Below are positions 26,749 to 43,551 of a stretch of DNA of 64,000 nt, one piece after another. Position 1 is the first letter of the stretch. Every line of letters starts with the position of its first letter. A model generated the notes under the pieces. It was not told the origin of the DNA, did not search any database, and worked only from the letters and a program-made list of their open reading frames with translations. This DNA comes from Nitrospirota bacterium (GTDB lineage: Bacteria > Nitrospirota > JACRHJ01). Made by a program: the position numbers and the translations under genes. The DNA is taken from positions 30,136 through 94,135 of the forward strand of contig JACRHJ010000046.1 of NCBI GenBank assembly GCA_016212105.1, in the 5' to 3' direction.

Positions 26749-26826
<78 letters not shown>

Positions 26827-27139: not shown

Positions 27140-27195
27140 AACTCTTCCGGGCACGAGCTTTGGCGGGAAGCCGTTGTTGTGGCGGGACTTCACAT

Positions 27196-27272
27196 GCGCC
27201 CGTAGCTCAGTTGGATAGAGCGTCGGACTTCGAATCCGCAGGTCGCAGGTTCGAGCCCTGCCGGGCGCACCA
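27196..27272 (+). tRNA. tRNA-Arg (anticodon TCG)
   Basis: Acceptor gcgcccg/cgggcgc, anticodon loop ctTCGaa, T-arm gcagg-ttcgagc-cctgc, and CCA. Confidence 0.65.
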
Positions 27273-27354
27273 TAAGGGGCCCGGGCGGGCAGTCCGGAAG
27301 CCGGGCGGTACTTGGGCTCCGGTTGCGAGAGAATACCCGTACCGCGGGTGATAC

Positions 27355-27431
27355 GCGCCTGTAGCTCAGTTGGATAGAGCAACGGATTCCGGTTCCGTGT
27401 GTCGGGAGTTCGAGTCTCTCCAGGCGCGCCA
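27355..27431 (+). tRNA. tRNA-Arg (anticodon CCG)
   Basis: Acceptor gcgcctg/caggcgc, anticodon stem acgga/tccgt with loop ttCCGgt, and CCA. Confidence 0.75.
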
Positions 27432-27448
27432 GATTTTGCTTTTTAGTT

Positions 27449-27475
27449 GTCATTCCCGCGAAAGCGGGAATCCAG
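27449..27475. repeat. REP-B palindrome copy (between tRNA-Arg and tRNA-Lys)
   Basis: gtcattcccgcgaaagcgggaatccag. Confidence 0.65.
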
Positions 27476-27497
27476 GGTTTATACAATATTTGAAGTT

Positions 27498-27573
<76 letters not shown>

Positions 27574-27804
27574 AAACTTATCAAGGGGTTAGGCGTTATC
27601 GCCTAACCCCTTTGTTGTTTCCGGTTGTTAATATAACCGAGTGCGGCCCTCAGTAATGAAAATGGCAGTTCACGGCTTACAAATTCCGCTAATTGCGCGT
27701 AAACGAGCAACGAGAAGAGCGTTATCGCTATGCATGTCGTACGATTCCATCATTAATTAGCTCCAATATCCTGTACTATATCGATTATCGTTTTATCGTT
27801 CTAC

Positions 27805-27820
27805 GGGCACAAAACTTGCA
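27805..27820 (+). promoter_or_regulatory. sigma-54-type -24/-12 promoter element (GGGCAC-N5-TTGCA) in front of the first multiheme cytochrome
   Basis: cGGGCACaaaacTTGCAtt matches the TGGCAC-N5-TTGCW consensus, with the invariant GG and GC correctly spaced. It sits at the 3' end of an ~230-bp AT-rich region with TATCGTT-type direct repeats (27607..27804), and rpoN is encoded in this window. Confidence 0.5.
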
Positions 27821-27840: not shown

Positions 27841-29493
27841 ATGAGTGTTTTTACTCATAAGATTGATATTGTTGCAGGCGCGTCAACAATAAATGAGGAT
27901 AACGTGAGAAAACTTCATAAAAACGCCAATAAAACCTATTGGCTGTACCTCCTTCTGGTGATATTCGCGGCCGCGCTGGTCGCACCGGACCAGGCCTTTG
28001 CGGCGCCTATCGGCTGCGGAGGCTGTCACAGCACTCCTCCGTCGGATACGGACAGCGAGGGTTGTCTCGTCGAGACCGCCAAGAGCCATCTGGCTCACTC
28101 AAGCGCGGACACCTCCACATGTCTCAGATGCCACCCGGCCCCCGGCACGGTGCACGCGCCCGGCGGCAGGCATTACGACGGCCTGGTCAACGTCACCTCG
28201 CTGCCCGGACTTGGAATGAACTACACCAAGGCGGACTCGACCTGCACGAGCGTCTGCCACAAGAACGAGAACTCATACGTCTGGGGCGGAAGTCTTGACT
28301 GCAACTCCTGCCACTTCAGGAGCGGCGCGCAGGGCAACTACATCATGTCCGGACAGCACATGGCGTCGGACCGGAGTTTCCGGCATTTCAGCTCCCCCAT
28401 AAAGGTCACTGACAACACGAAGACCATTACGTGCGCCAACTGCCACCCTGTAAACGGGGGCGACAACACCGCGCCGCGAAGCCATATCAACTCGGCCAGC
28501 TTCGACAAGAAGGCCGACATGTCGGAGGCGCACACCTACGTCAACGTATCCGGCGTGGGCATCGTAAAGGGCGCGACGGCGGCGGACGCGACCTGCTCGA
28601 ACTCCTGCCACTACAACGGCACGGATACGTTTGGGCTGCTGACGACGTACTTCAGGCCCGGCCAGAAGGTCCGGTTCGGCCCGTACCAGAGTTCGAACTG
28701 GGGCTCGGAAGACCTCAACTGCAACGAGTGCCACAGCTCCCCGAGCCAGAGCGCGAGCTTCGGCGGGTCGAGCAGCGTGAACGCCGACAAGCACCATACG
28801 TCCCACATGTTCAAGTACAAGCTGGCCGCCGGCAGGTACGCGAACGACGACAAGAACATATACTGCTACGACTGCCACCGCCTCCCCGACATGTCAGGGA
28901 CCCGCGGGTTCAAGGGGCACTCCACGACAGGTCAGGGCGGGAGCGGTATGATATCCCTGCCAGTGAAGTCCGGAAACGCCAAGGTGAACATCGCGTGGCG
29001 CAACGGCAACGTCGGCCACGACGGCATCAACCCGCCCGCGTACGACAAGGACGCAAGGACCTGCGACAACGTGTACTGCCACACCGCCATATCTTCCGCG
29101 ACCTGGACCGACAGGGCCTGCGACGACTGCCACGGCGTCCGGGGCGGCGTCCTGACCGGCTCCGGCGCCCCCGGCTACAGGAACTGGACCACCCCGGCCA
29201 CGTACCCCGAGTTCCAGGAGTACGCGGGCGGCGGCGGCGCACACTACCTGCACGTCTTCGGACGCGGGTACACCTGCAACACCTGCCACAGCAGCGGCGG
29301 CAAGGACGGCAACCCCGCCAACCACAACCAGGGCGCGGGTACGGTCATCAGGGCCAACGTGAACGTCGGCATGGAGACCGCGTACTGGTTCAACGGCGTT
29401 CCTTCTTCGTACGATACAGCTACCAGGACCTGCCTGAGCGTCAACTGCCATTACGGGACGTCGAGGAGCTGGGACTGCGAGCCGCTTCATTAA
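27841..29493 (+). CDS. multiheme c-type cytochrome (~12 heme-binding motifs), secreted
   Basis: Of the 12 motifs, eight are CXXCH (CGGCH, CLRCH, CNSCH, CANCH, CNECH, CYDCH, CDDCH, CNTCH). The rest are CX3CH (CTSVCH, CSNSCH) and CX4CH (CDNVYCH, CLSVNCH). The signal peptide is KTYWLYLLLVIFAAALVAPDQAFA. The likely true start is GTG 27904 with a GAGGA RBS. The C-terminal module (...NCHYG.S..W.C) is shared with the 1994-aa paralog. Confidence 0.8.
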   Translation: MSVFTHKIDIVAGASTINEDNVRKLHKNANKTYWLYLLLVIFAAALVAPDQAFAAPIGCGGCHSTPPSDTDSEGCLVETAKSHLAHSSADTSTCLRCHPAPGTVHAPGGRHYDGLVNVTSLPGLGMNYTKADSTCTSVCHKNENSYVWGGSLDCNSCHFRSGAQGNYIMSGQHMASDRSFRHFSSPIKVTDNTKTITCANCHPVNGGDNTAPRSHINSASFDKKADMSEAHTYVNVSGVGIVKGATAADATCSNSCHYNGTDTFGLLTTYFRPGQKVRFGPYQSSNWGSEDLNCNECHSSPSQSASFGGSSSVNADKHHTSHMFKYKLAAGRYANDDKNIYCYDCHRLPDMSGTRGFKGHSTTGQGGSGMISLPVKSGNAKVNIAWRNGNVGHDGINPPAYDKDARTCDNVYCHTAISSATWTDRACDDCHGVRGGVLTGSGAPGYRNWTTPATYPEFQEYAGGGGAHYLHVFGRGYTCNTCHSSGGKDGNPANHNQGAGTVIRANVNVGMETAYWFNGVPSSYDTATRTCLSVNCHYGTSRSWDCEPLH

Positions 29494-29578
29494 GACAGGC
29501 GATAAAGGATTACGAGATATACGGAACTGAACTTTCTGAGTTTTGAAGTTAACTTGTTAAGAGGCGAGGGAGGCTGGG

Positions 29579-32500
29579 ATGGAAAAGAGAAGGCGGACCG
29601 GAGTTGCTTCGGGCTGGATGTTGATGCTGGCATTCGTGGTTAGCATGTTCATCCCGGCCGTGGCGCACGCGACCAAGGCCACCAACCCGGGCACGGTGAC
29701 GTGCACCCAGAACGGGAGCGCGATAGACGTCGTCGCCACGTTCACGATAGTCAACTGCGCCGGTGGCGACACGAACCTGCCCCAGTTCTATGTGGAGTGG
29801 GACATAGACCCGGACGGCGGCGGCGCCGGCGTGCCGGACTGGACGGGCACGGGTTACGGCAACAGCGGGAGCTACGCCACGGACAACACCACGCCGTACA
29901 ACTACACGACGCCCGCACTCACGTTGGGCAACAGCTATGCCGTCAGGGTCACCTATCAGGACTTGGACGGCATCGGCGTCACGTGCGGCGGCGCCACCAC
30001 GCAGGTGGTCAACGGCAACAACGTCCAGCTCGGCAACAACTCGACCACGACCGGCTCGCTCAGCTCCCCGTCGCAGACCATGAACTCGGTGGACCTGGAG
30101 GCGACGTACACAAACGACGACAACAACAGTAACACTGCCGTCTTCGAGTACCAGCACCCGGTCAACGGCTGGACGACCATCAGCGGCCCCAGCGTGACGA
30201 GGGGGACGAAGACCTGGTCGGTGTCGGCCACCGGCCTGGACCCCGGCACGTCTTACAACTTCAGGGTGACATTCTCTGACGGCGACACGGTCAGCGGCAC
30301 GAACCCGGTAACCGGCAGCTACTCCACCATGGTCTTCTGCAGCAGCACGGTCACCGGCTGCACCGACTGCCACACTATGCCGCCGTCCGCCGGCGACCAC
30401 GAGATCAGCGCCCACAAAGGCGCGGGCGCCCGCGACGACTGCGCGGTCTGCCACTACAACTACGCCGCGATGACCAACGTGACATCGGCGTCGAGGTGGC
30501 TGACCGGCCATTCGAACCTTACTATGGACATATACACCTCCAACCACGTTGCGAACAAGGTCTTCTCCGCCCCGTACGACAAGGGCATCAAGGGCGGCTA
30601 CTACAAGGGCTACAGGAACTCTTCCACCTTGTGGGAAGACAAAACGCCCAACGCAAACAACGTCTGCGCCGCTACGTACTGCCACGGCGCGGGCGACTCG
30701 CCCGTTTGGGGCGTCGGCACGGCTTCCTGCGGAAGCTGCCACGGCGTGTCCACACCGCCGGCCGGAGGCAAGCACGGCTCCCACACCAACGGCTACGTCG
30801 GGTACAAGGACAGCTCCAACGCGACGACATACAACTTCGGCTGCTACAAGTGCCACGACGAAGGGACGGTAGGCCACTCGTCCGGGCCGAGCAGTGCCAA
30901 CCAGGCGGCGGCCGTCGGCTTCGACAACCGCACCGCCCCGTTCAACCCCTCGGGCAGCTACACCCCGGGCGGCTCGACGGCCGGCACGGACGGCACGTTC
31001 AACTGGACCAACGGCACATGCGCGAGCCTTTACTGCCACTCAGACGGCAAGGGCGGCTACACCAACCCGACCTGGAACGGCACGCTTGCCGCCAACTGCC
31101 TCGGCTGCCACAAGAACAACAAGGCATCCGGCGGCGGCAACATCATGGCCACCGGCAAGCACACGGAGCACGTTAACAACGCGGACGCGAACCTTGCCAC
31201 GTACGGCTGCGTGAAATGTCACAACGCGACAGTCAGCGCGGACAGGACGCTCTCCGACAAGTCCAAGCACGTGGACGGGACCCCGAACGTCGCCTTCGAC
31301 ACGCTCAACCCGTCCGGCTCATACTCGAGCCCGGACTGCTCGACGGCCTACTGCCACAGCACCGGCCAGTCCACGCCTTCCTACCAGACCCCTGACTGGA
31401 ACACGGGCGCGGCCCTCACATGCGACGGCTGCCACGGCGTCGAGGGCGTCGCGCTTTCGGCCGGCGCTCCGGAATACGCGAACGCCTCCACTAGCAACAG
31501 GAACACGTTCAACAGCCACGACAAGCACGCGCTTGCCGACGCGGACTGCGTGAACTGCCACGGCCAGACCGTGGACGGGGCCAAGGCCATAGTCGCCTCC
31601 TCCCGTCACATCGACACGTTCAGGAACGTAAGCTTCGCCAAGGGCGGCACGTACAACACCACGCTCAAGCGCTGCGACAACACCGACTGCCACGGCACGA
31701 CCGAGATGCGCTGGGGCGGGTCGCTCCCGGCAAGCTGCCAGAGCTGCCACAGCGACATGGGCGCGGGCACGAACGGTTCGCACGGCAATACGGGCAAGCA
31801 CGACAGGCACACAAACGCGTACGGCTACGCCTGCGAGGTATGCCACGCCACGAAGAACGCCACCGGAAACACCAGCCATGCGGGCGGCGACGTATCGTCA
31901 AAGCACGCGGCACAGGTGTTCTTCAACAGGTCCGCGACGGTCTGGACCGCCATACAGTACGGCGGCGGCGGTTCGAGCTTCAAGTACCTCCAGATGGACA
32001 GCGCGTTCGGCCTCTCGGGCATCGCGCCAATCTACAAGCCGGCGACCACCGCTTCCGCACAGTCGGACCCGATAAGCCTCAACAGGAAGTGGACCGAGGG
32101 CCGCTGCGAGAACGTCTGGTGCCACTCGAACGCGAACCCGATGGGCGGCGCGATGCAGTACGCGCAGTTCGCCAACTGGTCGGCCTCCGAGGCGACAACA
32201 TGCACGTCCTGCCACGGCGGGCCCGGGACATACGCCGCCGTGTCGCTGTCCGCGAAGCACAAGATGCACGCGGGCACGGACAGGTACTCGTACGCATGCA
32301 GCGAGTGCCATAACGCGACGGTCGGCTCCGGCAACTCGCCGGTCACCGACCTGACGAAGCATGTCAACGCGGTCAAGGACGTTGGCTTCGACGGCACCAA
32401 CGTCAGCGGCTCCTACACAGGCCCGAACTGCTCCACCCTTTACTGCCACGGCGACGGAAACGGCGGCACCGGCGGCGCTGCCTGGAACGGCGCGGCCACG

Positions 32501-35500
32501 ACCTGCACGAGCTGCCATGCCTACTCGGCCCTTGCCACGAGCAAGCACGACGAGCATCTGGCGGGCGGCAACCTCGCCTCCTTCAGGTGCGGTGACTGCC
32601 ACAAGGTCACAGTGCAGACCAACAATACGACGATCAACTATGCACTGGGCAAGCACGTCAACAGCACCAAGGACGTCTCGTTCAAGGCGATGGGCAGCTA
32701 CACCGGCTTCTACACGGCGTCAAGGACCTGCCGGAACTCCTACTGCCACAGCTCGGGCCAGGCCACTCCGAGCTTCCGCACGGCGGCCGACTGGTCGGGC
32801 GCCACTGCATACGGCTGCGCCTCCTGCCACGGCGCTGACTCGGCATTCCTCGCGCCGTCCGGCGAGCCAAACTACGCAAACGTCTCTACGGCCACCAGGA
32901 ACGCGTTCAACAGCCACAGCTCCCACGTAACCGCGTCCACGGACTGCGCCAGGTGCCACAACACCACGGTCGACGCCTCGCAGGCAGTACTCGCGGGCGG
33001 CAAGCACCTTGACACGGCGCGCGACGTATCGTTCGCCAAGGGCGGCACGTACAACAACACGAGCAAGCGCTGCAACAACACCGACTGCCACGGCACGACG
33101 CAGATGCGCTGGGGCGGCAGGCTTCCGAAGAACTGCCAGTCCTGCCACTCCGACATGGGCTCGGGCACGTACGCGAACCACAGCTCGACCGGCAAGCACG
33201 GCAAGCACGTGGCGACTTACGGCTACGCCTGCGAGGTCTGCCACGCGACCAAGAACGCATCCGTCAACACCAGCCATGCGGGCGGCGACGTCTCGTCCAA
33301 ACATGCGGCGCAGGTGTTCTTCAACACATCCGCCACGGTATGGGCGAACGTCACTTACGGCGGTGGCGGCGCGTCGCTCAAGTACAGGCAGATGGACGGC
33401 GCATACGGCCAGAACGGCATAGCCCCGGTCTACACCCCGTGGACGACCACCACGGCGCTCTCCGACCCGCTCAGCCCGAACCGCAAGTACACCCAGGGCC
33501 GCTGCGACAACATATGGTGCCACTCCAACGCGAAACCGCTGGGCGGCGTCATAACCTACGCGAAGTTCGCCAACTGGTCGACGGGCGAGACCGCGACATG
33601 CACCTCCTGCCATGGTGGGGCTGGCACGTTTGCGAACGTAACGCTTTCCGACGCGCACAAGAAGCATGTCGGTACGGACCGCTACGGCTACACCTGCAGC
33701 GAGTGCCACAACGCAACCGTCTCGGCGGGCAACTCGCCGGTAACGGACTACAGCAAGCACGTCAACGCGGCCAAGGAAGTGGGCTTCGACGGGACCAACC
33801 CGGCCGGCACGTACACCAGCCCGAGCTGCGCGAACCTCGCCTGCCACGGTAACGGAAACGGCGGCACCGGCTCCTATGCATGGAACGGCGCCGCGACAAC
33901 ATGCGCGAGCTGCCACAACTACACCGTTGGCTCGGGCTCGCCGATTACGACCGGCGCACACGGCACGCACATCAACCAGGGCAACCTCGGCGTGTCCAAG
34001 TGCGTAGACTGCCACAAGCTGACGGTGCTGAACAACAACACCACGATCCAGTACTCGACCGGCAACCACGTAAACCAGGTCAAGACGGTGTCGATGAAGA
34101 GCTTTAACTCCTACACCGGCTTCTACACAGCATCGAACACCTGCCGGAACGCGTACTGCCACAGCTCCGGCCAGTTCGTACCGGCCTTCGTCACGACCCC
34201 GGTCTGGGCCTCCGGCAGCCTCACCTGCGACGGCTGCCACGGCGCCGAGGGTGCGACGCTCGTTGCCGGCTCGCCGGAGTACGCGAACGTGTCCACGACC
34301 AACAGGAACACGTTCAACGGACACGCGGTAAGCGGGCACGTCGGCGCGGCAACCGACTGCATCAAGTGCCACAACTCCACCGTCGACGCCGCGGGCGCGA
34401 TAAAGGCCGGCTCCCTGCACCTCGACGGTTCGAGGAACGTGAGCTTCCAGCTCGGCGGCAGCTACGACAGCACGAACAAGCGCTGCAGCAACACCGACGC
34501 AGGGTGCCACGGCACGACGACCATGCGCTGGGGCGGCTCGGGCACCTGCTCAACCTGCCACCAGGTGACTACGGCCGAGGACGACGACTATACATACGGT
34601 TCTCTGCCGAAGGCGACAGTGAACTTCTACGAGTACACCTCGGTCGGCCACGGCAAGAAGGGCGCGTACAGGTACACCGGCAACACCGGCGCGGACCTGG
34701 CCTGCACCTCGTGCCACAGCATGACGACACCGCACAACGCGGCTACCAACCCGTTCAGGCTGATATCCTCGGCGACCATCAAGCCGAGCCAGCCGAACAC
34801 GCTGTGCGCGTCCTGCCACGGGACGGTGGGCAACCACGACTTCGCGCACGTCGCGCAGGGCACCTGGTCCTGGACGCCGAAGTGCGTAGACTGCCACGAC
34901 CCGCACGGCGACAACGGCGGCGTGACGACCACGGAGAGAAACGGCGCGATGGTGCAGAAGCAGGTGTCCTACACCGCGTCCAACACCTACGGCGTGCCGG
35001 GCACCACCGAGGCCGTAGACTTCCCGGCCAACTACGCCCGCGCAAAGAGCCTCGCGGCTTTCAACTGGTCGAGCTTCGTGGTCAACACCGGCCAGGCCAA
35101 CAAGGGCATATGCCGCGTCTGCCATACGCAGGCGAGCACGAACTACTTCACGAGGACCGTGTCCAGCTCTACCCATGAGATCGGCTCGGCCTGCATAACC
35201 TGCCATTCGCACCCGGCAGGGTTCCAGCCGCCGGCCTGCGACAGCTGCCACGGCAACCCGCCGAACACCGGCGACGCGAAGACCGACACGCAGGGCGCGG
35301 TCGGCGCGCACGCCAAGCACGTGAACAGGGGCATGAGCTGCTACGACTGCCACAAGTCGAACCAGCACAACCAGTCCGGCGTCTCCAGCGGGTACTCCGG
35401 CGCGCTCACCCCGGGCTTCGTGAACATGAGCGTCGCATACACGTTCAAGTTCAACGGCAGCCTGCCGAACTACAACGGTACGCCGGGCGGCTGGAGCACG

Positions 35501-35563
35501 AGCAAGACCTGCAGCAACGTAAACTGCCATTACGGCGAGTCGAAGGACTGGAGCTGCCAGTAA
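29579..35563 (+). CDS. giant multiheme c-type cytochrome, 1994 aa, ~45 heme-binding motifs
   Basis: The signal peptide is MLMLAFVVSMFIPAVAHA. A non-heme N-terminal ~250 aa Thr/Gly/Asn-rich region comes first, then 45 CX(2-6)CH motifs: about 32 CXXCH, about 12 CX4CH (for example CAATYCH, CENVWCH, CRNSYCH) and 1 CX6CH. The protein is built of three ~470-aa tandem modules. Confidence 0.85.
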   Translation: MEKRRRTGVASGWMLMLAFVVSMFIPAVAHATKATNPGTVTCTQNGSAIDVVATFTIVNCAGGDTNLPQFYVEWDIDPDGGGAGVPDWTGTGYGNSGSYATDNTTPYNYTTPALTLGNSYAVRVTYQDLDGIGVTCGGATTQVVNGNNVQLGNNSTTTGSLSSPSQTMNSVDLEATYTNDDNNSNTAVFEYQHPVNGWTTISGPSVTRGTKTWSVSATGLDPGTSYNFRVTFSDGDTVSGTNPVTGSYSTMVFCSSTVTGCTDCHTMPPSAGDHEISAHKGAGARDDCAVCHYNYAAMTNVTSASRWLTGHSNLTMDIYTSNHVANKVFSAPYDKGIKGGYYKGYRNSSTLWEDKTPNANNVCAATYCHGAGDSPVWGVGTASCGSCHGVSTPPAGGKHGSHTNGYVGYKDSSNATTYNFGCYKCHDEGTVGHSSGPSSANQAAAVGFDNRTAPFNPSGSYTPGGSTAGTDGTFNWTNGTCASLYCHSDGKGGYTNPTWNGTLAANCLGCHKNNKASGGGNIMATGKHTEHVNNADANLATYGCVKCHNATVSADRTLSDKSKHVDGTPNVAFDTLNPSGSYSSPDCSTAYCHSTGQSTPSYQTPDWNTGAALTCDGCHGVEGVALSAGAPEYANASTSNRNTFNSHDKHALADADCVNCHGQTVDGAKAIVASSRHIDTFRNVSFAKGGTYNTTLKRCDNTDCHGTTEMRWGGSLPASCQSCHSDMGAGTNGSHGNTGKHDRHTNAYGYACEVCHATKNATGNTSHAGGDVSSKHAAQVFFNRSATVWTAIQYGGGGSSFKYLQMDSAFGLSGIAPIYKPATTASAQSDPISLNRKWTEGRCENVWCHSNANPMGGAMQYAQFANWSASEATTCTSCHGGPGTYAAVSLSAKHKMHAGTDRYSYACSECHNATVGSGNSPVTDLTKHVNAVKDVGFDGTNVSGSYTGPNCSTLYCHGDGNGGTGGAAWNGAATTCTSCHAYSALATSKHDEHLAGGNLASFRCGDCHKVTVQTNNTTINYALGKHVNSTKDVSFKAMGSYTGFYTASRTCRNSYCHSSGQATPSFRTAADWSGATAYGCASCHGADSAFLAPSGEPNYANVSTATRNAFNSHSSHVTASTDCARCHNTTVDASQAVLAGGKHLDTARDVSFAKGGTYNNTSKRCNNTDCHGTTQMRWGGRLPKNCQSCHSDMGSGTYANHSSTGKHGKHVATYGYACEVCHATKNASVNTSHAGGDVSSKHAAQVFFNTSATVWANVTYGGGGASLKYRQMDGAYGQNGIAPVYTPWTTTTALSDPLSPNRKYTQGRCDNIWCHSNAKPLGGVITYAKFANWSTGETATCTSCHGGAGTFANVTLSDAHKKHVGTDRYGYTCSECHNATVSAGNSPVTDYSKHVNAAKEVGFDGTNPAGTYTSPSCANLACHGNGNGGTGSYAWNGAATTCASCHNYTVGSGSPITTGAHGTHINQGNLGVSKCVDCHKLTVLNNNTTIQYSTGNHVNQVKTVSMKSFNSYTGFYTASNTCRNAYCHSSGQFVPAFVTTPVWASGSLTCDGCHGAEGATLVAGSPEYANVSTTNRNTFNGHAVSGHVGAATDCIKCHNSTVDAAGAIKAGSLHLDGSRNVSFQLGGSYDSTNKRCSNTDAGCHGTTTMRWGGSGTCSTCHQVTTAEDDDYTYGSLPKATVNFYEYTSVGHGKKGAYRYTGNTGADLACTSCHSMTTPHNAATNPFRLISSATIKPSQPNTLCASCHGTVGNHDFAHVAQGTWSWTPKCVDCHDPHGDNGGVTTTERNGAMVQKQVSYTASNTYGVPGTTEAVDFPANYARAKSLAAFNWSSFVVNTGQANKGICRVCHTQASTNYFTRTVSSSTHEIGSACITCHSHPAGFQPPACDSCHGNPPNTGDAKTDTQGAVGAHAKHVNRGMSCYDCHKSNQHNQSGVSSGYSGALTPGFVNMSVAYTFKFNGSLPNYNGTPGGWSTSKTCSNVNCHYGESKDWSCQ
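31421..35563 (+). repeat. three tandem ~1.4-kb coding repeat units inside the 1994-aa cytochrome gene (unit boundaries ~31421, ~32816, ~34225)
   Basis: Units 1 and 2 are about 85% identical at the DNA level. An example is ...aagcgctgcgacaacaccgactgccacggcacgac... versus ...aagcgctgcaacaacaccgactgccacggcacgac.... Unit 3 is more diverged. Confidence 0.6.
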
Positions 35564-35576
35564 GTCGTAGGGAGAA

Positions 35577-35607
35577 CCCCCTGGAGGCCGGTAACGGCCT
35601 CCAGGGG
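35577..35607 (+). terminator. strong stem-loop (cccctggaggccg-gtaa-cggcctccagggg) after cytochrome 2; no U-tract
   Basis: It is a perfect 13-bp stem. It is related to the stem-loop after cytochrome 3 (42241..42267), sharing the gaggccg-N3-4-cggcctc core. It may be an attenuator or an RNA-stability element rather than a full terminator. Confidence 0.4.
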
Positions 35608-35623
35608 TGAACTTATTCAGGTC

Positions 35624-35652
35624 TTGGGTATTGGCCGAAAATGTGCTATATT
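35624..35652 (+). promoter_or_regulatory. candidate extended -10 sigma-70 promoter (TTGGGT-N17-TGcTATATT) for the second giant cytochrome
   Basis: The extended -10 element aTGtGcTATATT lies at 35642..35652, about 120 nt upstream of the ATG at 35776. Confidence 0.3.
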
Positions 35653-35775
35653 CGGCCTTGTCCCTAGCCCTGAAAAGTGCGGACGCGGGGAGAAACTCCG
35701 CGTCCTTCTGGTTGCGTTATTCAATACGAGACCTTATATTTAATAGATATAGATTTTCCGCACACGGAGGAACCG

Positions 35776-38700
35776 ATGAGGCGTATAGCTCTCGAAGGCA
35801 GTATCACATACATTGCCGCGCTGGCGGCGGCGCTGATAGTCATGTTGTCGCCAGGCTCCGCGCTTGCGGTCAAGTATTGGACCAATACCGGGACGGTCAC
35901 TGCTACGGCGAACGGCAATGCGATAAACGTCAGCGCGACCTACACCACAGGTGGCACAAGCTGCGGTAACGGCGGAGACACAGCGCCGACGTTCTTCGTG
36001 GAGTGGGACGTTACGCCCGCCGACTGGACGGGCGCGGGATACGGCTCGTCCGGCGGGTACAATGCGGACACGGGCGGGGTATCGCCTTACGCCTATACGA
36101 CGCCAAACCTCGCGGCCGGGACCTACGCGGTCAGGGTTACCTACGAAGACGCCAACGGTATAGCCTCCTGCGGCGGCGGCAACGTCGCGGTAAACGCCGG
36201 CTCCAACGTGACGCTGGTAGCGAACAACCTCACAGTGGGGACGAACTCCGCGGTAGTAAACTCGTCGACGCAGATAACCGCCTCGGCGACGTTCTCTGAC
36301 GACATCAACGGGAACAGCAACACCAGCTTCCGTTACAGCACGAACGCCGGCGGCCCCTGGACGGACAAGTGCCTGAGCGTTACAGGAAATTCGCCGCGTA
36401 CCTGCGTGATAGACGGCCTCTCCGCGAGCACGGACTACTACGTACAGGTAACGCATGCAGACGCGGACGGCGTGACCGGGACGAACCCGCAGGTCGTGGG
36501 CCCGTACACGACACAGTCCGCGGTCGCCTGCGACCCGCTGGTCAACGACTGCTCAGACTGCCACGCGGCCCCGCCTGCCGACTGGGACGGTATCAGCCCG
36601 AAGGCCGGTACCACCGGCCACAAGGGCGACCACGCAGTCCCCGCCCACACCTCGGACGGCGCGAGGGACAAGTGTGCGATATGCCACTTCAAGTATTCGG
36701 GCATGGTGAATGTCACATCGGCCGCGCGCTGGCCGGTGGGACATTTAAACGGCATACTGGACATATATACATCCAACCACGTGGCAAACAAGGTATTCTC
36801 CGCCCCGTACGACAAGGGCATCAAGGGCGGCTACTACAAGGGCTACAGGAACAGGTCAACCATATTCGAAGAAAAAGCCGCGAACGCCAACAACGCCTGC
36901 ACTGCGACGTACTGCCACGGCGCGGGCGACTCGCCCGTATGGGGGACAGGCACGGCCTCGTGCGGCAGCTGCCACTCGCTTCCGCCGTCCGCGGGCAAGC
37001 ACGCAACGCACAGCCAGGGACTCGTCGGGCACGGAAACGGCAACAGCGGCACGACTTACGACTTCGGCTGCTACAAATGCCACTCCAACACGTCGGGCCA
37101 CTCCGCCGGCCCGGTGAGCGCGAACCGCGCGGCGCTTGTGGACTTCAACAACCTCTCGTCGCCCGTGAACGCCTCCGGCTCCTACGTGGAAGGCGCGCTC
37201 GCGGGCACGGACGGGACGTTCAAATGGACGAACGGGACCTGCAACGGCCTTTACTGCCACTCGACCGGCAAGGGCGGCGCGCCCGGCACCACGGCCACCT
37301 GGAACGGCACGATGGCGGCGAACTGCGCGGGCTGCCACAGGGGCACTACGGCATCCGGAACGCCGATGAACTCGGGCAAGCACACCCAGCACATGACCTC
37401 CGGCGCGTACAACTACGCCTGCAACAAGTGCCACAACGACACGACCACCACCGGCACGACCGTGACTAATACCGCGTTCCACGTCAACTCCTCGATCGAC
37501 GTGAAGTTCGAGGGGCAGAACCCCACCGGCTCATATGCTGGCACGACATGTTCGAGCATGTCCTGCCACTCGGACGGCGCGGGCGGCACGGGAAGCGCGG
37601 ACTGGACCGGTGCCGCCATGACATGCACGTCGTGCCACAAGTTCAACAAGGCCGCGGCCCCCAACGACATCACAAGCGGGAAGCACACGCAGCACATAAA
37701 CAACGGCGACCTCGGCAAGATATCCTGCTCGCAGTGCCACAGGCTGACCGTCAGCGCGGGCGATTCGCCCGTCACCGGCTACTCAAGGCACGTGAACGCC
37801 GCCAAGGACGTCTATTTCAACGCGCTCAACACTTACACCGGCTTCTACACCGGCGCGTACACCTGCCGCAACAACTACTGCCACAGCTCGGGCCAGGCGA
37901 CCCCGACGTTCCGGACTGCTGACGCGTGGAACGGCGCGACGACGTACACGTGCAACGCGTGCCACGGCGCGGACAACTACTACACGGACGTGAACGGGTC
38001 TCCTGACTACCAGAACGTCTCGTCCTCGACGCGCAACAGCTTCAACGGGCATTACCTGCCCGGCCACGTAGCCGCGACCGGCGACTGCATCGACTGCCAC
38101 AGGACTGTCGTGAACAACTTCGGGAACCTGACGACCGGCACGGTGAAGCACATAGACGCCACGAGGGACGTTATGTTCAAGGGCGGCGGCTCATACGCCA
38201 ACAAGCGCTGCACGAACACGAACTGCCACGGGACGACTGCGGTGCGCTGGGGCGGCAAGCTTCCGAAGGACTGCCAGTCCTGCCACAGCGACCAGGGCGC
38301 GGGCTCGTATGCGAACCACAGCACGACCGGCAAGCACAGGAAGCACACTGATTCGGCGACCTACAACTACGCGTGCGAGGTATGCCACGCGCTCCTTAAC
38401 GCGAGCGGCAACACGGACCACGCGAAGGGCGACGTCGGCGCGAACCAGGCTGCGCAGATAGTGTTCCACAGCGCGACGACGGCATGGCGCACGAAGACCT
38501 ACGGCTCTGGCGGCGCCGCCAAGCGGTACGTCCAGATGGACAGCGCGCTTGGCGCGGCGCACAGCCCTGTATACGCGGCCGGCCCGGCCTCGGCGGGCTC
38601 CGACCCGGTGAACGTGAACCGCAAGTGGACTCAGGGCCGCTGCACTGCCATATGGTGCCACTCGAACGGCCAGAGCACGCCGACGTACGTTAACTTTGCT

Positions 38701-41700
38701 AACTGGTCCACGGCGGAGACGGTGAACTGCCGGAGCTGCCACGCGGGCGACAAGACGGCGTCCCCGACGATAAACTCCGGGAAGCATACGCAGCACGTGA
38801 ACAACGCTGAGCTTGGCAGCTTCCGGTGCGCGCTCTGCCACGTGAAGACGGTCGCCACGAACACGGTGATAGACGGTTACGCCAAGCACGTGGATGGCAC
38901 CCGCAACGTGAACTTCACGACTATCACGGTGAGCAACTACACCGGCTTCTACACCGGCACGTACACCTGCCGGAACAACTACTGCCACAGCTCGGGCCAG
39001 GCGACACCGGCGTTCCGTACGGCGGCTGCCTGGAACAGCGCGACGGTTTACGGCTGCGACGACTGCCACGGCTCGGAGGGCACGACCTACGTGGCCGGCG
39101 CGCCGGAGTACGCTAACACCTCGACCTCCAACAGAAACAGCTTCAACGGGCATTACGTCTCCGGCCACGTCAGCGCCGTTGGCGACTGCATCGACTGCCA
39201 CAGGACTGTCGTGAACAACTTCGGTAACCTGACGACCGGCACGGTAAAGCACATCAACGGCACGATAGACATCGTGTTCAAGGGCGGCGGTTCATACGCC
39301 AACAAGCGCTGCTCCGGGACGGCGTCCTCCTGCCACGGCGCGACCACTCCACGCTGGGGCGGCAGCCTGGCCTGCGCCGACTGCCACCAGGTGACGGCGG
39401 CCGAGACCGACAACTTCAGCTACGGAGACGCGACCAAGGCTACCGTGAACTTCTACGAGTACACCTCCGTCGGACACGGCAAGAAGGGTACGTACAGGTA
39501 CACCGCCAACGCCGGCGCGAACCTCTCCTGCACCAGCACGAGCGACACCAACACCGTCGGCGGCTGCCACAGGGGCGTCACCGCGCACAACGTGACCGGC
39601 AACCCGTTCCGGCTCGTGTCCTCGGCCACGATCAAGCCGACCGTCCCGAACTCCCTGTGTGCGACGACCTGCCACACCTCGCCTGCCGTGCAGAACCACG
39701 TCAAGGCGATAACCGGCGGCACGAAGTACGCGACCTGGTTCTTCACGCCCAAGTGCGTGGACTGCCACGACCCGCACGGCGACAACGGCGGCAACGACAC
39801 GGCGCAGAGAAACTACATGATGGTGCAGAGCTTCGTCAACTACTCGACAGGCAGCAACGCCTACGGCGCGCCGTACCCGGCAGCGACATACCCGAGGCGC
39901 GCCATGGACTTCCCGGCCGAGACGACGAGGCCGGCGAGCCTGACGAGGTCGAGCTTCGTGACGGCTGGCTACGACGGCATCTGCCAGCTATGTCACAGGA
40001 GGAACTCCACCGTTGTGTTCGACAGGAACCAGAACCAGGCGCACAACGGCACGACCGTATGCACCGACTGCCATACCAGCTCGCTCGTCCACAACGAGGG
40101 CTTCAAGGGCGCTGGCGGCAGCTGCCTGGACTGCCACAACCAGGTCCAGAACAGCAGGCCTAGCATGCAGGCCGAGTTCGGCAAGACCTCGCACCACGTC
40201 AGCGCGTCCTGGGCGAGCTTCACGACAACGACGTGCTCGGTCTGCCATCTCGAGGGCGACTCGACCGGCGCGATTACGAGCTACCACAACAACAACGTTG
40301 GCGGGGGATACCCCGTCGACCTCAGGGTCATCGTCACGGTCGGGGCGACAGAGGCGACCACCGTCACGAACAACGCCAACTCGGTCCAGTTCTACTCCGG
40401 CCACGGGACCAACGGCGGGACCAGGAGCGCGGGCAACGCGGCCAACAGGCACTGCGGCGGATGCCACAACGAAACCAACGCCGCCTCGAAACCGTTCCCG
40501 ACGGCGGAGGCGACCGACCTGACGCCGGGCGCATACACCCCGACAAACGCCGGGTCTGTGTTCAAGCGCTATTCGTCGGCCACTACGACCAAGTCGCACC
40601 CGTACAACCCGAACACGTACAACGTCGTCGGCCAGCTGAACAAGGCGTACTCCCCGCACGGCCACCCGGAGAAGAACCAGATGAAGAACGTGGTCTCCGG
40701 CGCCTGGGTGGACGACACGCAGACAGTCTCGAACGCGGTAGGATGCCTGGACTGCCACAACAGCCACGGCTCCAACGCCGGCGCGGACGAGACCGGGCTG
40801 AACATGATAACCTACAACAGCGCGGTCGGCGGCTACTTCGGCGGCCTAATCAAGGAGGAATCGGCCTACGACCCGGACAAGTCGGGCACCACCTTCAATG
40901 CGGTATCCGACCTCTGCTTCGACTGCCACCTGGGCGACGACGCCAGCGCGCCCAAGAAATACTCGGACTTCGGCGTCGCGGCGGCCAGGCCTGTCAAGGA
41001 GTACTTCGACGCCGGCAGGTGGACGCCCAACTTCAGCAACGTCTCCAGCTCGTTCGCGTACAAGGCGGGCACTCTGGCGGCCAACTCCGGTAGGATAAAG
41101 GGCGGTCACTTCGGCGCCAGTGAAGCGCTCAGGGGCTCTGCTACAAACTCCGTGGGCGGCAGCTGTCTCGCATGCCACGACCCGCACGGCACGCCGTACA
41201 CGAACCTTGTCGGCCCGGGCAGCGAAAGGGCGTTCATGGCCCCGGCTCTCAAGGGTACATGGATGGCGTCTCCGTACAAGGAGGACCGCGTCGGCGAATA
41301 CGGCGCGAGCACGCTTGGCGACGCCAACCCGTACTCGTACAGCATGAATAAATCCGGGCGCGTCGGGCCGAGGGAGTCGCCAGCGTTCGCTTACAACAAC
41401 CCGGCCAAGGTTGGCGCGGGCTTCGGCACGGGCGCATCGGCATTCGGCATGTACGCCGCGGGCGGCAGCGGACATGACGGTTACTTCGTCGACGACAACA
41501 CGTTCGGCAACAGCGGCATAGGCTCCACGGCGAGCAACCCGTGGGCTTCGGCAATTACCGGCACGTATATCAGTCAGACCGACAGCCAGTTCGCCGGTCT
41601 GTGCCTGGGCTGCCACCCGCAGACAAACATCGATGCCGAGGTTGCCAGGACCGCGGGCGAGACCGGCAACGTCGCCATCAACGTCCACAGGACGGTTAAG

Positions 41701-42228
41701 GGCTGGGATACCATCGCGACGGCATCTGACTTCTTCAAGCCGGCGCACACCAACCAGCACCTGATGGCGTACAAGGCGACGGGCACGGACACCACCAACT
41801 GGTGCGGCACGACCCACGCGTACTACCCGGTGCCGTCCGGATACAGGTGGTCGGTCAACCCGGGCACGCAGATAACCATAGCCGCGGGCAGGCCGCCGTC
41901 GCCGAGCCAGCCCATGGTCGACCCGCCGAGCGGGGGCGGCGGACAGCAGGGCACCACGCCGCAGTCGACGTACCATCAGTTCCCGTGCGCGAAGTGCCAT
42001 GCTCCTCACGCGACGAAGCTCCCGAGGCTGATGAAGACGAACTGTCTCGACGTTGGCCCGACGGAATCGTCCGGGACGCATAAACCCAAGCATAACTCGT
42101 CGTTCAACATGGGCTACTGCGACGACGGCTCCGGAGTGGCGATATACAAGCGGTCTATGGTCTGCCATAACTCCAACAGGACGAACACATCCGGCGGAGG
42201 TGGCTGGAACATCAAGACAGGCTGGTAA
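35776..42228 (+). CDS. giant multiheme c-type cytochrome, ~2150 aa, ~40 heme-binding motifs
   Basis: The ATG at 35776 follows GGAGG, and the track ORF starts earlier at 35677. The signal peptide is IAALAAALIVMLSPGSALA. The motifs mix CXXCH with CX3/CX4CH, CX6CH and a C-terminal CX14CH. Aa ~330-400 are about 90% identical in DNA to the matching segment of the 1994-aa paralog. The C-terminal ~700 aa are Gly/Ser/Thr/Asn-rich. Confidence 0.85.
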   Translation: MRRIALEGSITYIAALAAALIVMLSPGSALAVKYWTNTGTVTATANGNAINVSATYTTGGTSCGNGGDTAPTFFVEWDVTPADWTGAGYGSSGGYNADTGGVSPYAYTTPNLAAGTYAVRVTYEDANGIASCGGGNVAVNAGSNVTLVANNLTVGTNSAVVNSSTQITASATFSDDINGNSNTSFRYSTNAGGPWTDKCLSVTGNSPRTCVIDGLSASTDYYVQVTHADADGVTGTNPQVVGPYTTQSAVACDPLVNDCSDCHAAPPADWDGISPKAGTTGHKGDHAVPAHTSDGARDKCAICHFKYSGMVNVTSAARWPVGHLNGILDIYTSNHVANKVFSAPYDKGIKGGYYKGYRNRSTIFEEKAANANNACTATYCHGAGDSPVWGTGTASCGSCHSLPPSAGKHATHSQGLVGHGNGNSGTTYDFGCYKCHSNTSGHSAGPVSANRAALVDFNNLSSPVNASGSYVEGALAGTDGTFKWTNGTCNGLYCHSTGKGGAPGTTATWNGTMAANCAGCHRGTTASGTPMNSGKHTQHMTSGAYNYACNKCHNDTTTTGTTVTNTAFHVNSSIDVKFEGQNPTGSYAGTTCSSMSCHSDGAGGTGSADWTGAAMTCTSCHKFNKAAAPNDITSGKHTQHINNGDLGKISCSQCHRLTVSAGDSPVTGYSRHVNAAKDVYFNALNTYTGFYTGAYTCRNNYCHSSGQATPTFRTADAWNGATTYTCNACHGADNYYTDVNGSPDYQNVSSSTRNSFNGHYLPGHVAATGDCIDCHRTVVNNFGNLTTGTVKHIDATRDVMFKGGGSYANKRCTNTNCHGTTAVRWGGKLPKDCQSCHSDQGAGSYANHSTTGKHRKHTDSATYNYACEVCHALLNASGNTDHAKGDVGANQAAQIVFHSATTAWRTKTYGSGGAAKRYVQMDSALGAAHSPVYAAGPASAGSDPVNVNRKWTQGRCTAIWCHSNGQSTPTYVNFANWSTAETVNCRSCHAGDKTASPTINSGKHTQHVNNAELGSFRCALCHVKTVATNTVIDGYAKHVDGTRNVNFTTITVSNYTGFYTGTYTCRNNYCHSSGQATPAFRTAAAWNSATVYGCDDCHGSEGTTYVAGAPEYANTSTSNRNSFNGHYVSGHVSAVGDCIDCHRTVVNNFGNLTTGTVKHINGTIDIVFKGGGSYANKRCSGTASSCHGATTPRWGGSLACADCHQVTAAETDNFSYGDATKATVNFYEYTSVGHGKKGTYRYTANAGANLSCTSTSDTNTVGGCHRGVTAHNVTGNPFRLVSSATIKPTVPNSLCATTCHTSPAVQNHVKAITGGTKYATWFFTPKCVDCHDPHGDNGGNDTAQRNYMMVQSFVNYSTGSNAYGAPYPAATYPRRAMDFPAETTRPASLTRSSFVTAGYDGICQLCHRRNSTVVFDRNQNQAHNGTTVCTDCHTSSLVHNEGFKGAGGSCLDCHNQVQNSRPSMQAEFGKTSHHVSASWASFTTTTCSVCHLEGDSTGAITSYHNNNVGGGYPVDLRVIVTVGATEATTVTNNANSVQFYSGHGTNGGTRSAGNAANRHCGGCHNETNAASKPFPTAEATDLTPGAYTPTNAGSVFKRYSSATTTKSHPYNPNTYNVVGQLNKAYSPHGHPEKNQMKNVVSGAWVDDTQTVSNAVGCLDCHNSHGSNAGADETGLNMITYNSAVGGYFGGLIKEESAYDPDKSGTTFNAVSDLCFDCHLGDDASAPKKYSDFGVAAARPVKEYFDAGRWTPNFSNVSSSFAYKAGTLAANSGRIKGGHFGASEALRGSATNSVGGSCLACHDPHGTPYTNLVGPGSERAFMAPALKGTWMASPYKEDRVGEYGASTLGDANPYSYSMNKSGRVGPRESPAFAYNNPAKVGAGFGTGASAFGMYAAGGSGHDGYFVDDNTFGNSGIGSTASNPWASAITGTYISQTDSQFAGLCLGCHPQTNIDAEVARTAGETGNVAINVHRTVKGWDTIATASDFFKPAHTNQHLMAYKATGTDTTNWCGTTHAYYPVPSGYRWSVNPGTQITIAAGRPPSPSQPMVDPPSGGGGQQGTTPQSTYHQFPCAKCHAPHATKLPRLMKTNCLDVGPTESSGTHKPKHNSSFNMGYCDDGSGVAIYKRSMVCHNSNRTNTSGGGGWNIKTGW

Positions 42229-42240
42229 CACAACAACCTC

Positions 42241-42267
42241 GCGGGGAGGCCGATACGGCCTCCCCGC
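42241..42267 (+). terminator. stem-loop (gcggggaggccg-ata-cggcctccccgc) after cytochrome 3; weak U-tract
   Basis: It is a 12-bp perfect stem that is followed 24 nt later by AAGGAGG and the HEAT-protein ATG. Confidence 0.4.
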
Positions 42268-42291
42268 TTCATTACAAGGAGGTTAAACGGT

Positions 42292-43551
42292 ATGAGACGC
42301 CAGTTTATCATACCTGCCATGACTGCGGCGTTCATCGCCGCCGCCATGACGTACGCGTCCGTCGCGCCGTGCGCGACGGTCAGGGACCAGGACGGCAAGG
42401 TAGTGCTGGAGATTAAGGGAGCAGGGAGCGTGCCTAGGCTGATACCGCTCCTCGGGGACGACAGGCCGGAGGTCAGCGCACAGGCCATGGACGCCCTTGT
42501 GGAGATGGACGGTGACGCCGTGCCTGAGCTTATAGTGGAGCTGAAAGGGCCGAGGTTCAGAGAGGTTGCCATAGCCCTTGGGAAGATAAAGGATGCTCGC
42601 GCCGTAGTGCCGCTGTCAGAGTACATAAACGACATCACCTGGGAGAAGGCCGGGGTCGCAAGGGGCGCGCTGAGGGAGTTGGGCGACGCATCCGTACCGA
42701 GGATGGCGGAGCTTCTGAAAGACTCACGTTACCGGGATGCCGCTGCCGACGTGCTCCAGTACCTGAGCGGACCGCGCGCCGTCGAGGCCGTAGCGCCGCT
42801 TGCGGCGGATATCGACCCAGCCGTGCGCGGCGCGGCCATTCTGCTCCTGGTGAAGCTCGGGGCTCCTGGGGCGGGTGATGTTATACGTGGGGGGCTGACA
42901 GACAATGACCCGGCCGTGCGAGCGAAGGCCGCGGAGGCCTACATGGTCTCAGGCGAACGCGAAAGGCAGCTGCTTTACGGGATGCTCAAGGACGGTGACC
43001 TCGGCGTAAGGACGCTCGCGGCCAACATGCTTGAGGCCGCGCCGCACATGGAAAACTTTGGCCCGCTACTCGAATGCTACAGGGTTGAGAAGGACGGCAT
43101 GGCGAGGTCTATCGAGCTGTCCGCCCTGGGCGAGACCGGCGATGCGCGTGCCGTTCCCCTGATGCTGGAGGCGCTGGGGGATGGCAGCGAAGAGGTGGTC
43201 CTTTCAGCGCTGGTCTATTTTACCGAGCACCGCGACGAGCGGTCGGTCCCGGCGATACTGAAACTCTACGAAGGCCCGAAACATCCAGAAAACCCGCACG
43301 TGCTGATCTTTTCGCTCGACGCCCTGAAGTATCATAACTACAAAGGCGCGCATGGATTCGTCCTGGGTTACCTGGGAGAAGGCTGGCATTTCAAGCACAA
43401 GTCCGCAGCCCTGAACTACCTTGCCGAGACCGCGAGCGAGGGTGACACGAGTGTAGCTGACGCGGTAAGACGTATGCTCGGGAATGAGACCGACCTGACA
43501 CTCCGCGCCGCCGCCGACAGGGTGCTGAAGAGGGTCGGGCAGCTACCGTAG
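42292..43551 (+). CDS. secreted HEAT-repeat protein (PBS-lyase/E-Z type HEAT-like repeats)
   Basis: It has a signal peptide (AAFIAAAMTYASVA) and repeated ~30-aa units of the form [LV]..LL.D.D..VR..A..AL..xG (DPAVRGAAILLLVKLG, DNDPAVRAKAAEAY, DGDLGVRTLAANML...). Confidence 0.6.
   Translation: MRRQFIIPAMTAAFIAAAMTYASVAPCATVRDQDGKVVLEIKGAGSVPRLIPLLGDDRPEVSAQAMDALVEMDGDAVPELIVELKGPRFREVAIALGKIKDARAVVPLSEYINDITWEKAGVARGALRELGDASVPRMAELLKDSRYRDAAADVLQYLSGPRAVEAVAPLAADIDPAVRGAAILLLVKLGAPGAGDVIRGGLTDNDPAVRAKAAEAYMVSGERERQLLYGMLKDGDLGVRTLAANMLEAAPHMENFGPLLECYRVEKDGMARSIELSALGETGDARAVPLMLEALGDGSEEVVLSALVYFTEHRDERSVPAILKLYEGPKHPENPHVLIFSLDALKYHNYKGAHGFVLGYLGEGWHFKHKSAALNYLAETASEGDTSVADAVRRMLGNETDLTLRAAADRVLKRVGQLP

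Follow-up and report, generated by a model that had tools for sequence, protein, structure and literature searches.

The 64,000-nucleotide stretch of DNA analysed here, called the window throughout, comes from a Nitrospirota bacterium (GTDB lineage Bacteria; Nitrospirota; JACRHJ01) and corresponds to positions 30,136 to 94,135 of the forward strand of contig JACRHJ010000046.1 in GenBank assembly GCA_016212105.1. Between positions 27841 and 42228 it carries three genes, named A, B and C below, for secreted multiheme c-type cytochromes, which are followed by a gene for an exported protein with HEAT repeats. A first-pass annotation, made from the sequence alone, had described giant multiheme cytochromes at this locus, and the open reading frames (ORFs) and their lengths in amino acids (aa) were found as described. 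The genes are as follows.

27841-29493, plus strand: gene A, longest form in the ORF list, 550 aa from ATG 27841.
27904-29493, plus strand: gene A, probable form, 529 aa from GTG 27904, 12 heme-binding sites in four c7-like units.
29579-35563, plus strand: gene B, 1994 aa, 45 heme-binding sites, Sec signal peptide cut after AHA.
35677-42228, plus strand: gene C, longest ORF, 2183 aa from the first GTG.
35776-42228, plus strand: gene C, likely form, 2150 aa, 39 heme-binding sites, Sec signal peptide cut after ALA.
42292-43551, plus strand: HEAT/PBS-lyase-like repeat protein, 419 aa, Sec signal peptide, match to Pfam HEAT_2 with E=3.3e-28.

Gene A had been reported as encoding 550 aa, which holds for its longest ORF; however, translation probably starts at GTG 27904 and not at ATG 27841, which gives 529 aa. 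A GAGGA ribosome-binding site lies just upstream of this GTG, and the protein then begins with a classical signal peptide, MRKLHKNANKTYWLYLLLVIFAAALVAPDQAFA, with AP following the cut. The start of gene C is almost certainly ATG 35776, because a GGAGGA ribosome-binding site precedes this codon and the resulting 2150 aa is the length of the deposited NCBI protein P0002. Sec-type signal peptides were recognised by inspection on A, B, C and the HEAT protein. B and C were 33% identical and collinear from the signal peptide on, and A aligned with B and C in many registers of both at 22-24% identity. The earlier claim that A, B and C are paralogous secreted multiheme c-type cytochromes was supported. 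The gap between A and B is 85 nucleotides (nt), that between B and C is 212 nt with two hairpins, and that between C and the HEAT gene is 63 nt with one hairpin.

[quoted passage not shown] A contained 12 sites (8 CX2CH, 2 CX3CH and 2 CX4CH), B contained 45 (32 CX2CH, 12 CX4CH and 1 CX6CH) and C contained 39 (28 CX2CH, 1 CX3CH, 7 CX4CH, 1 CX6CH, 1 CX11CH and 1 CX14CH). The earlier figures of about 12, 45 and 40 were therefore exact for A and B, while that for C becomes 39. When each protein was shuffled 2000 times with its composition preserved, CX2-4CH motifs appeared on average 0.19, 0.62 and 0.43 times in A, B and C, with maxima of 3, 5 and 5, as against 12, 44 and 36 observed; the motif counts are far beyond chance. 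Motifs accounted for 24 of the 26 Cys in A, 90 of 95 in B and 78 of 85 in C. Of the free Cys, nearly all were found in the N-terminal domains without hemes or at the very C-terminus, and those capable of forming disulfides were almost confined to these N-terminal domains, which are FN3-like. Over the whole protein, there were 48 residues per heme in C, 40 in A and 38 in B, and the composition of the cytochromes was rich in Thr, Gly, Ala, Ser and Asn.

The building block of these proteins was found to be a c7-like triheme unit of about 105-155 aa. Every triad followed the same pattern (one His, CX4CH, no His, CX2CH, two His, CX2CH), which in the register of the unit reads H..H-CXXCH (heme I), H-CX4CH (heme III) and CXXCH (heme IV). 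The earlier observation that the variant motifs recur at fixed positions of the module was thus borne out. Across 22 aligned units of A, B and C, 12 positions did not vary: all six Cys of the motifs, the three proximal His, and one Tyr, one Trp and one distal His. A conserved Met column was absent. A unit has as many spare His as hemes, three of each, in agreement with bis-His ligation throughout, and covalently bound heme would be expected at both the CX4CH and the CXXCH sites. Pairs in which CX4CH is followed by CXXCH after a gap of 12-25 residues occurred 11 times in B, 7 times in C and once in A. At one further homologous position in B and in C, the first motif of the pair was CX6CH, and in A one pair began with CX3CH; the twelfth CX4CH of B and the second of A were C-terminal, with no CXXCH after them. 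A consists of 4 units, B of about 14 units and a conserved tail, and C of fewer units and a head of ~970 aa. The larger architectural features are listed here.

29672-30343, plus strand: non-heme N-terminal domain of B, ~225 aa with 4 free Cys; the N-terminus of C is homologous to it.
31595-32992, plus strand: super-repeat 1 of B, aa 673-1138, four triheme units with 12 sites.
32993-34390, plus strand: super-repeat 2 of B, aa 1139-1604, four triheme units.
29446-29493, plus strand: C-terminal ending of A, shared with B.
35513-35563, plus strand: C-terminal ending of B, shared with A.
39316-42225, plus strand: head module of C, last ~970 aa, lower heme density.

The two super-repeats of B are 466 aa each, with 65% amino-acid identity and ~71% DNA identity, and correspond to the module of about 470 aa that had been noticed before. 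The non-heme N-terminal domains of B and C, of ~225 aa and with 4-5 Cys, were weakly FN3/Ig-like (the fn3 match was sub-threshold, at 17.6 bits versus a cut-off of 25); the alignment of B with C begins at residues 16/49, and relatives carry many copies of the same kind of domain. The ending ...CxxxNCHYGxSxxWxC-(0-4 aa), which had been regarded as common to the paralogs, was confirmed for A and B, but C ends differently. A and B end at a lone Cys where the CXXCH of a next unit would start, and this Cys is absent in some relatives. Of all parts of C, the head was the best conserved: the related proteins P0003-P0008 and P0098 share it, and Geobacter-type proteins share it in part.

The CX4CH sites are conserved features and not errors. 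Their share was 27% of the sites in B, 18% in C and 17% in A, so the estimate of a quarter to a third of the motifs was correct for B but too high for C and A. The sites with other loop lengths are the following.

34484-34510, plus strand: CX6CH site of B, CSNTDAGCH.
39310-39336, plus strand: CX6CH site of C, CSGTASSCH.
39529-39570, plus strand: CX11CH site of C, CTSTSDTNTVGGCH, with a 9-residue insertion inside CXXCH.
42118-42168, plus strand: 'CX14CH' site of C, near the C-terminus.

At the position of the CX11CH site of C (NLSCTSTSDTNTVGGCH), B and all orthologs examined have canonical CXXCH, and the ortholog and paralog forms there include DLACTSCH, NLGCTDCH, NLSCTDCH, GLACEDCH, NLACESCH and NKQCTDCH. 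Therefore, the CX11CH of C is an in-frame insertion of 27 nt (9 residues). The insertion was found in both assemblies (P0002, from the second, has it), and the site after it is CX3CH in C and P0003 and CXXCH elsewhere. The CX6CH position of B and C was CX4, CX6 or CX7 among the relatives; no paper using 'CX5CH', 'CX6CH' or 'CX7CH' was found in the literature library searched. In the C-terminal part of C (42049-42168, plus strand), alignment of the relatives showed that the final CH and the Cys of KTNC ~40 residues upstream were invariant. A firmly conserved long-loop CX14CH motif was rejected, since its upstream Cys was absent in 3 of 9 relatives, and the last heme of C may be attached via one Cys or a very long loop. 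The published record already covers non-canonical motifs of this kind: CX3CH, CX4CH, CX11CH, CX15CH and CX17CH are documented as heme-binding motifs (PMC11492766), the CX4CH of hydrazine dehydrogenase (HDH) covalently holds heme 3 in the structure of that enzyme (PMC6469936), and CX14CH has been described in OmcZ (PMC9473688). Differences in loop length between homologous sites (CX2/CX3/CX11 and CX4/CX6/CX7) show in what way non-canonical sites originate and supply ready-made substrates for probing the tolerance of maturation systems.

Family models placed all three proteins in the curated CxxxxCH/CxxCH domain c-type cytochrome family (TIGR01904/PF09698), which is itself defined by the CX4CH-rich design; this design is not out of the ordinary. 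TIGR01904 scored 75.3 bits for A (E=2.3e-21), 312.9 for B and 170.8 for C against a cut-off of 27, in 3, 12 and 8 stretches, respectively. PF09698 (GSu_C4xC__C2xCH, 'Geobacter CxxxxCH...CXXCH motif') scored 93.1 bits for B and 70.2 for C (cut-off 21.7), and PF14522 (Cytochrome_C7) scored 136.9 for B (E=2e-40), 65.1 for C and 30.3 for A (cut-off 24.8). PF22113, the pentaheme model of MtrC/MtrF domains II-IV, matched aa 1686-1837 of C at 49 bits (cut-off 30), a borderline match that was lost when only the C-terminal 942 aa were scanned. B is identical to the NCBI protein P0001, 'MAG: CxxxxCH/CxxCH domain-containing protein [Nitrospirae bacterium]', where MAG stands for metagenome-assembled genome; C (P0002) and the HEAT protein are also deposited in NCBI, C under the name of the CxxxxCH/CxxCH family.

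A word-indexed search returned at least 148 relatives at E<=1e-10, nearly all of 1200-3500 aa, from Geobacter, Geotalea, Geomonas, Anaeromyxobacter, Desulfuromonadales and many MAGs; one of them is a Geotalea daltonii protein annotated 'cytochrome c, 53 heme-binding sites'. Among 122 family members, the median was 43 sites per protein and the maximum 82, and the spacings were CX2 (4057), CX4 (1159, or 21%), CX3 (130), CX6 (19), CX5 (9), CX7 (5) and a few longer ones. When a profile of the super-repeat was compared with 1.84 billion cluster representatives, it matched 4181 at E<=1e-3, 2837 at E<=1e-10 and 1283 at E<=1e-30, and the best 150 of these matches spanned 866-5341 aa. Therefore, B and C are mid-sized, typical members of the family, and their share of CX4CH is the family norm; the 'rare' size and heme density claimed at first are only relative. 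In a survey of Desulfuromonadia, multiheme cytochromes reached 87 sites, and extracellular ones reached 75 (PMC11492766). The proteins do not represent a new kind; annotation pipelines already recognise the family, and what is added here is modest: the gene order A-B-C-HEAT, the grammar of the unit and the non-canonical sites derived by insertion.

Further metagenomic contigs showed this gene order as well. A JGI contig (locus L002) carries an A-like fragment, whose last 61 residues are 67% identical to the C-terminus of A, then P0009, a B-like gene of 2712 aa that shares the C-terminal motif and is 38% identical over a stretch of 1163 aa, with far higher identity in the final ~330 aa, a C-like gene (P0006) and a gene for an exported HEAT protein (14860-16122). 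In locus L003, a fragment with a B-type C-terminus is followed by the C-like P0005 and an exported HEAT protein (6058-7335). The HEAT proteins of these two loci are 27-29% identical to that of the window. A weaker HEAT match was located at ~12075-12785 of a Nitrospirota MAG locus (L013), 0.9 kb downstream of a 3664-aa C-like gene.

Taken together, these results lead us to regard the locus, with moderate confidence, as a four-gene cassette of exported heme-wire cytochromes and a HEAT protein, by which the redox pool of the periplasm would be connected with a partner at the cell surface or beyond it. The structure of the genes, their motifs, the family assignment, the repeat layout and the conserved order were shown here, and we infer heme occupancy and ligation, location, the direction of electron flow, the partners and the roles of the individual proteins. 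A, B and C would be exported by the Sec system, and heme would then be attached in the periplasm. Closely packed chains of bis-His hemes would pass electrons by stepwise hopping over tens of nanometres, and the density of one heme per ~38-48 residues suggests a continuous heme wire in a single polypeptide. A might serve as a shuttle or short adaptor. The long wire would be B, C would be a wire whose distal head contacts the substrate, and the exported HEAT protein might be a scaffold or an assembly factor. An analogue is GSU1996, a 12-heme chain of four c7-type domains that is 12 nm long with hemes 3-5 A apart (PMC10138318). By analogy with it, 45 hemes would extend over ~40 nm or more, beyond a normal periplasm, which would favour a reach to the surface or the extracellular space. 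Large multiheme cytochromes of Desulfuromonadia are likewise predicted to be long wires, mostly extracellular (PMC11492766). A role as a long-range electron conduit is plausible by analogy, and the electron-transfer scaffold proposed in the first-pass annotation is in line with the literature on electron wires (PMC11492766, PMC5566968, PMC10138318). The extracellular location and the electroactive or metal-respiring host that were also raised there may apply.

Several results weigh against this interpretation. A porin, an inner-membrane cytochrome b/quinol dehydrogenase or oxidase and Ccm/Ccs genes were not found in the 64-kb window; the check for porin and membrane partners consisted of Pfam scans and inspection of the ORFs of the flanks, which revealed no beta-barrel and no di-heme b protein. 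The outer-membrane route and the entry point of electrons are missing. By tblastn, the HEAT protein was not detected in 72 more distant loci that carry a C-type head (from Geobacteraceae, Desulfuromonadales, Nitrospirota, Thermodesulfovibrionia and others), and in two distant loci of this kind a Big_1/invasin-like surface protein stood in its place. Since the HEAT protein is confined to the closest loci, the A-B-C-HEAT cassette is a feature of a narrower clade. When specific relatives of the HEAT protein were sought outside the cassette, the matches were all generic HEAT-repeat proteins.

The structural comparisons were also unfavourable. Sequence and profile searches of the PDB with the whole proteins and with the module profile gave no informative relative: by phmmer, B matched only the 'c7-like domain' protein 8k9e (E=0.004) and C matched nothing, and the module profile gave matches at the level of CXXCH only. 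AlphaFold2 returned a mean predicted local distance difference test score (pLDDT) of 43 and a predicted template modelling score (pTM) of 0.28 for super-repeat 1 of B (466 aa, family alignment of 22 rows) and a pLDDT of 49 for one triheme module (106 aa, 22 paralogous modules). Both models are unusable, and therefore heme spacing and the geometry of the wire are deduced from the density of sites in the sequence. Finally, no experimental datum was found for any member of the CxxxxCH/CxxCH family.

A different function for these proteins would be that of periplasmic electron reservoirs, or capacitors, which store dozens of electrons when no acceptor is available. This alternative is unlikely, though it is the strongest of those considered. 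The architecture of the units matches that of c7 polymers, and GSU1996 has been considered as a capacitor in the periplasm (PMC10138318). For very large multiheme cytochromes, two roles have been put forward, one of which is storage (PMC11492766); the lack of a porin gene in the window agrees with it as well. However, the length expected for 45 hemes from GSU1996 exceeds that of a typical periplasm, and the same argument has been made for a 27-heme protein (PMC11492766). In addition, the N-terminal FN3/Ig-like domains and the MtrC-like stretch of C are typical of surface proteins, and in loci that are more distant the C-type gene is accompanied by genes for invasin/Big_1 surface proteins.

The A-B-C-HEAT cassette might also be an electron-conduit module in its own right, without a porin and characteristic of uncultured Nitrospirota and 'Deltaproteobacteria' lineages, in which ~96 hemes on three polypeptides would act as one relay and the periplasmic HEAT protein would be a dedicated assembly or maturation factor. 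Such a factor would help to attach or protect hemes at the CX6CH sites, the CX11CH insertion and the terminal site with a single or distant Cys. The lyases that attach bilins through thioether bonds have HEAT_PBS repeats too, which is a lead only. Because only generic HEAT relatives were found outside the cassette, gene order is what speaks for a dedicated lyase. We consider the proposal of such a module rather improbable. The conserved gene order nevertheless makes the exported HEAT protein a testable partner of the cytochromes.

There is a slim chance that C, and perhaps B, is a redox enzyme, whose ~970-aa head would be catalytic on a soluble or colloidal substrate (such as a sulfur, nitrogen, metal or metalloid species) with the triheme array feeding electrons to it. 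No part of C is better conserved than the head, which has a different, lower heme density and contains invariant residues outside the motifs, including the Cys of KTNC, together with an atypical terminal heme site. A multiheme selenoenzyme for sulfur respiration illustrates that enzymes of this general kind are still emerging (PMC13510729). However, C has no CXXCK or other classic signature of a catalytic heme and no match above noise to the NrfA, HAO, OTR or MccA families, and the spare His are sufficient for bis-His ligation throughout.

Lastly, it is extremely improbable that the gene lengths and motif counts are artefacts of repeat collapse or chimeric joining in a MAG, for although B is on record from a single contig and the contig of a second assembly begins 329 nt before its stop codon, the internal repeats are too diverged to collapse, C and 10 kb downstream of it are reproduced without gaps, each reading frame stays intact for 6 kb with a perfect tally of motifs, and orthologs have the same architecture. 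Specifically, the longest internal DNA repeat pair of B (31347-33118 versus 32739-34537) is 70.9% identical and the others are 68-79% identical, so that collapse, which had been named as a possible objection, is very unlikely. The independent assembly GCA_016222885.1 (contig JACRQC010000069.1, L001) matches window positions 35234-52228 at 99.4% with 101 mismatches and no gaps; therefore, the length of C is the same there. Position 1 of this contig is window position 35234, that is, the second assembly breaks inside B, and the full length of B therefore rests on the present assembly, the intact 6-kb frame and the architecture of the orthologs.

The surroundings of the cassette were also inspected. 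The window is chromosomal, as it contains lptC, lptB, rpoN (4886-6325), hpf, hprK, rapZ and phosphotransferase system (PTS) genes at 2.5-12 kb. The flanks of the cassette encode tRNAs, a radical SAM protein, small membrane proteins, the HEAT protein, a TPR/PMT_2 protein, NHL proteins and a DUF1571 protein. Downstream, on the opposite strand, lie a TPR/PMT_2 glycosyltransferase-like protein, two large NHL-repeat proteins, the DUF1571 protein and a cluster rich in radical SAM genes. The high G+C content of the locus is due to the Gly/Ala/Thr/Ser-rich composition of its products. The features of the surroundings are listed below.

14810-18292, plus strand: Type ISP restriction-modification enzyme, 1160 aa, N6 methylase and Type_ISP_C specificity domain.
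19531-21831, plus strand: Cys-rich protein of 766 aa in which a response-regulator receiver is joined to multiple PAS domains, encoded a few kb upstream of the locus.
22807-22882 and 24641-24715: tRNA-Glu and tRNA-Val, further upstream than the tRNA array.
26750-27574, plus strand: array of six tRNAs (Pro-TGG, Arg-TCT, His-GTG, Arg-TCG, Arg-CCG and Lys-CTT).
27583-27612: strong terminator after the tRNA array, immediately upstream of the cytochrome operon.
27805-27820, plus strand: sigma-54-type promoter-like site GGGCACAAAACTTGCA, ~85 nt upstream of the GTG of A.
43543-45426, minus strand: membrane GT-C-like (DUF6056/PMT_2) protein with C-terminal TPR repeats.
45727-47976, minus strand: NHL/beta-propeller protein, ~692-749 aa, convergent with the cytochrome operon.
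47802-51284, minus strand: NHL/beta-propeller protein, 1160 aa, also convergent with it.
52095-62351, minus strand: five radical SAM genes, one with a SPASM domain and two with an HMPTM-type zinc ribbon, class III and class V aminotransferases (class V fused to rhodanese), a PEMT-like methyltransferase and a hexapeptide transferase.

The GTG of A lies ~330 nt past the end of the tRNA array. Origin as a genomic island was considered and rejected, since no integrase is located nearby despite this array and the high G+C content is accounted for by the amino-acid composition. The site GGGCACAAAACTTGCA was the sole match in the window to TGGCAC-N5-TTGCW at <=1 mismatch, with ~1.6 such matches expected by chance, so that only its position is suggestive of a sigma-54 element; in L003, a gene for a sigma-54 activator lies just downstream of the HEAT gene. 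The receiver/PAS protein could be a redox sensor. Relatives of the GT-C-like/TPR protein were found <=10 kb from C-type genes in about ten loci (L005, L007, L009, L012, L023, L025, L064 and L067), and in L002 a PMT_2 gene starts at 17801. The cytochromes are very rich in Thr, Ser and Asn, with 49 and 39 NxS/T sequons, and their glycosylation is a possibility. When the flank proteins were searched by tblastn in 75 related loci, the NHL proteins were found in the sister strain only. The radical SAM cluster is probably biosynthetic.

Giant single-chain heme wires are among the least understood parts of microbial extracellular electron transfer, and none has been purified or solved. This locus leaves the current picture as it is. 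It offers a clean and intact case from outside Desulfuromonadia, in an uncultured lineage that is labelled Nitrospirae. Its modular grammar, with a triheme unit and a 12-heme super-repeat, could guide the design of expression constructs.

Among known systems, the nearest are the TIGR01904/PF09698 cytochromes, first defined in Geobacter sulfurreducens, which share the pairing of CX4CH with CXXCH, the T/G/A/S/N-rich composition and the giant repeats. The present locus differs from them in its host, labelled Nitrospirae and not Desulfuromonadia, in the A-B-C-HEAT cassette and in its lineage-specific CX6 and CX11 loops.

In the triheme cytochrome c7 PpcA, two His are followed by the heme I motif, one His, the heme III motif and the heme IV motif, and a c7 unit has about 75-80 aa. 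The proteins described here have the same order of ligands and motifs and, like the c7 polymers of the GSU1996 type, carry triheme units in tandem on one polypeptide. However, their units are longer (about 105-155 aa), the heme III motif is CX4CH, and the number of units ranges from 4 to 14 or more, with extra domains. GSU1996 has one His-Met heme per domain, whereas the three spare His of each unit and the lack of a conserved Met argue for bis-His ligation here. Neither the proteins nor the module profile had detectable similarity to the solved c7/GSU1996 chains.

The PCC3 clusters of Fe(II) oxidisers likewise contain adjacent genes for giant extracellular and periplasmic cytochromes, which are repeat-rich and T/S/A/G-rich and are read as molecular wires; their extracellular and periplasmic members have medians of 34 and 21 hemes, with up to 63 (He et al. 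2017, PMC5566968). However, the definition of PCC3 includes a porin together with a conserved inner-membrane protein of five helices in the same cluster, and neither of these was found at the present locus. The borderline match of aa 1686-1837 recalls domain II/IV of MtrC/MtrF and thus MtrC/OmcA, but C has a single stretch of this kind, a type I and not a lipoprotein signal, no four-domain layout and no MtrAB-type neighbours. A role similar to that proposed for the cassette, long-range transport along stacked hemes, is known from the OmcS/OmcE/OmcZ filaments, and OmcZ also has the long-loop CX14CH (PMC9473688). Searches of PDB sequences revealed no similarity to the subunits of these filaments. 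In OmcS, OmcE and OmcZ, small subunits with 4-8 hemes polymerise, whereas in A, B and C the length is encoded in one polypeptide.

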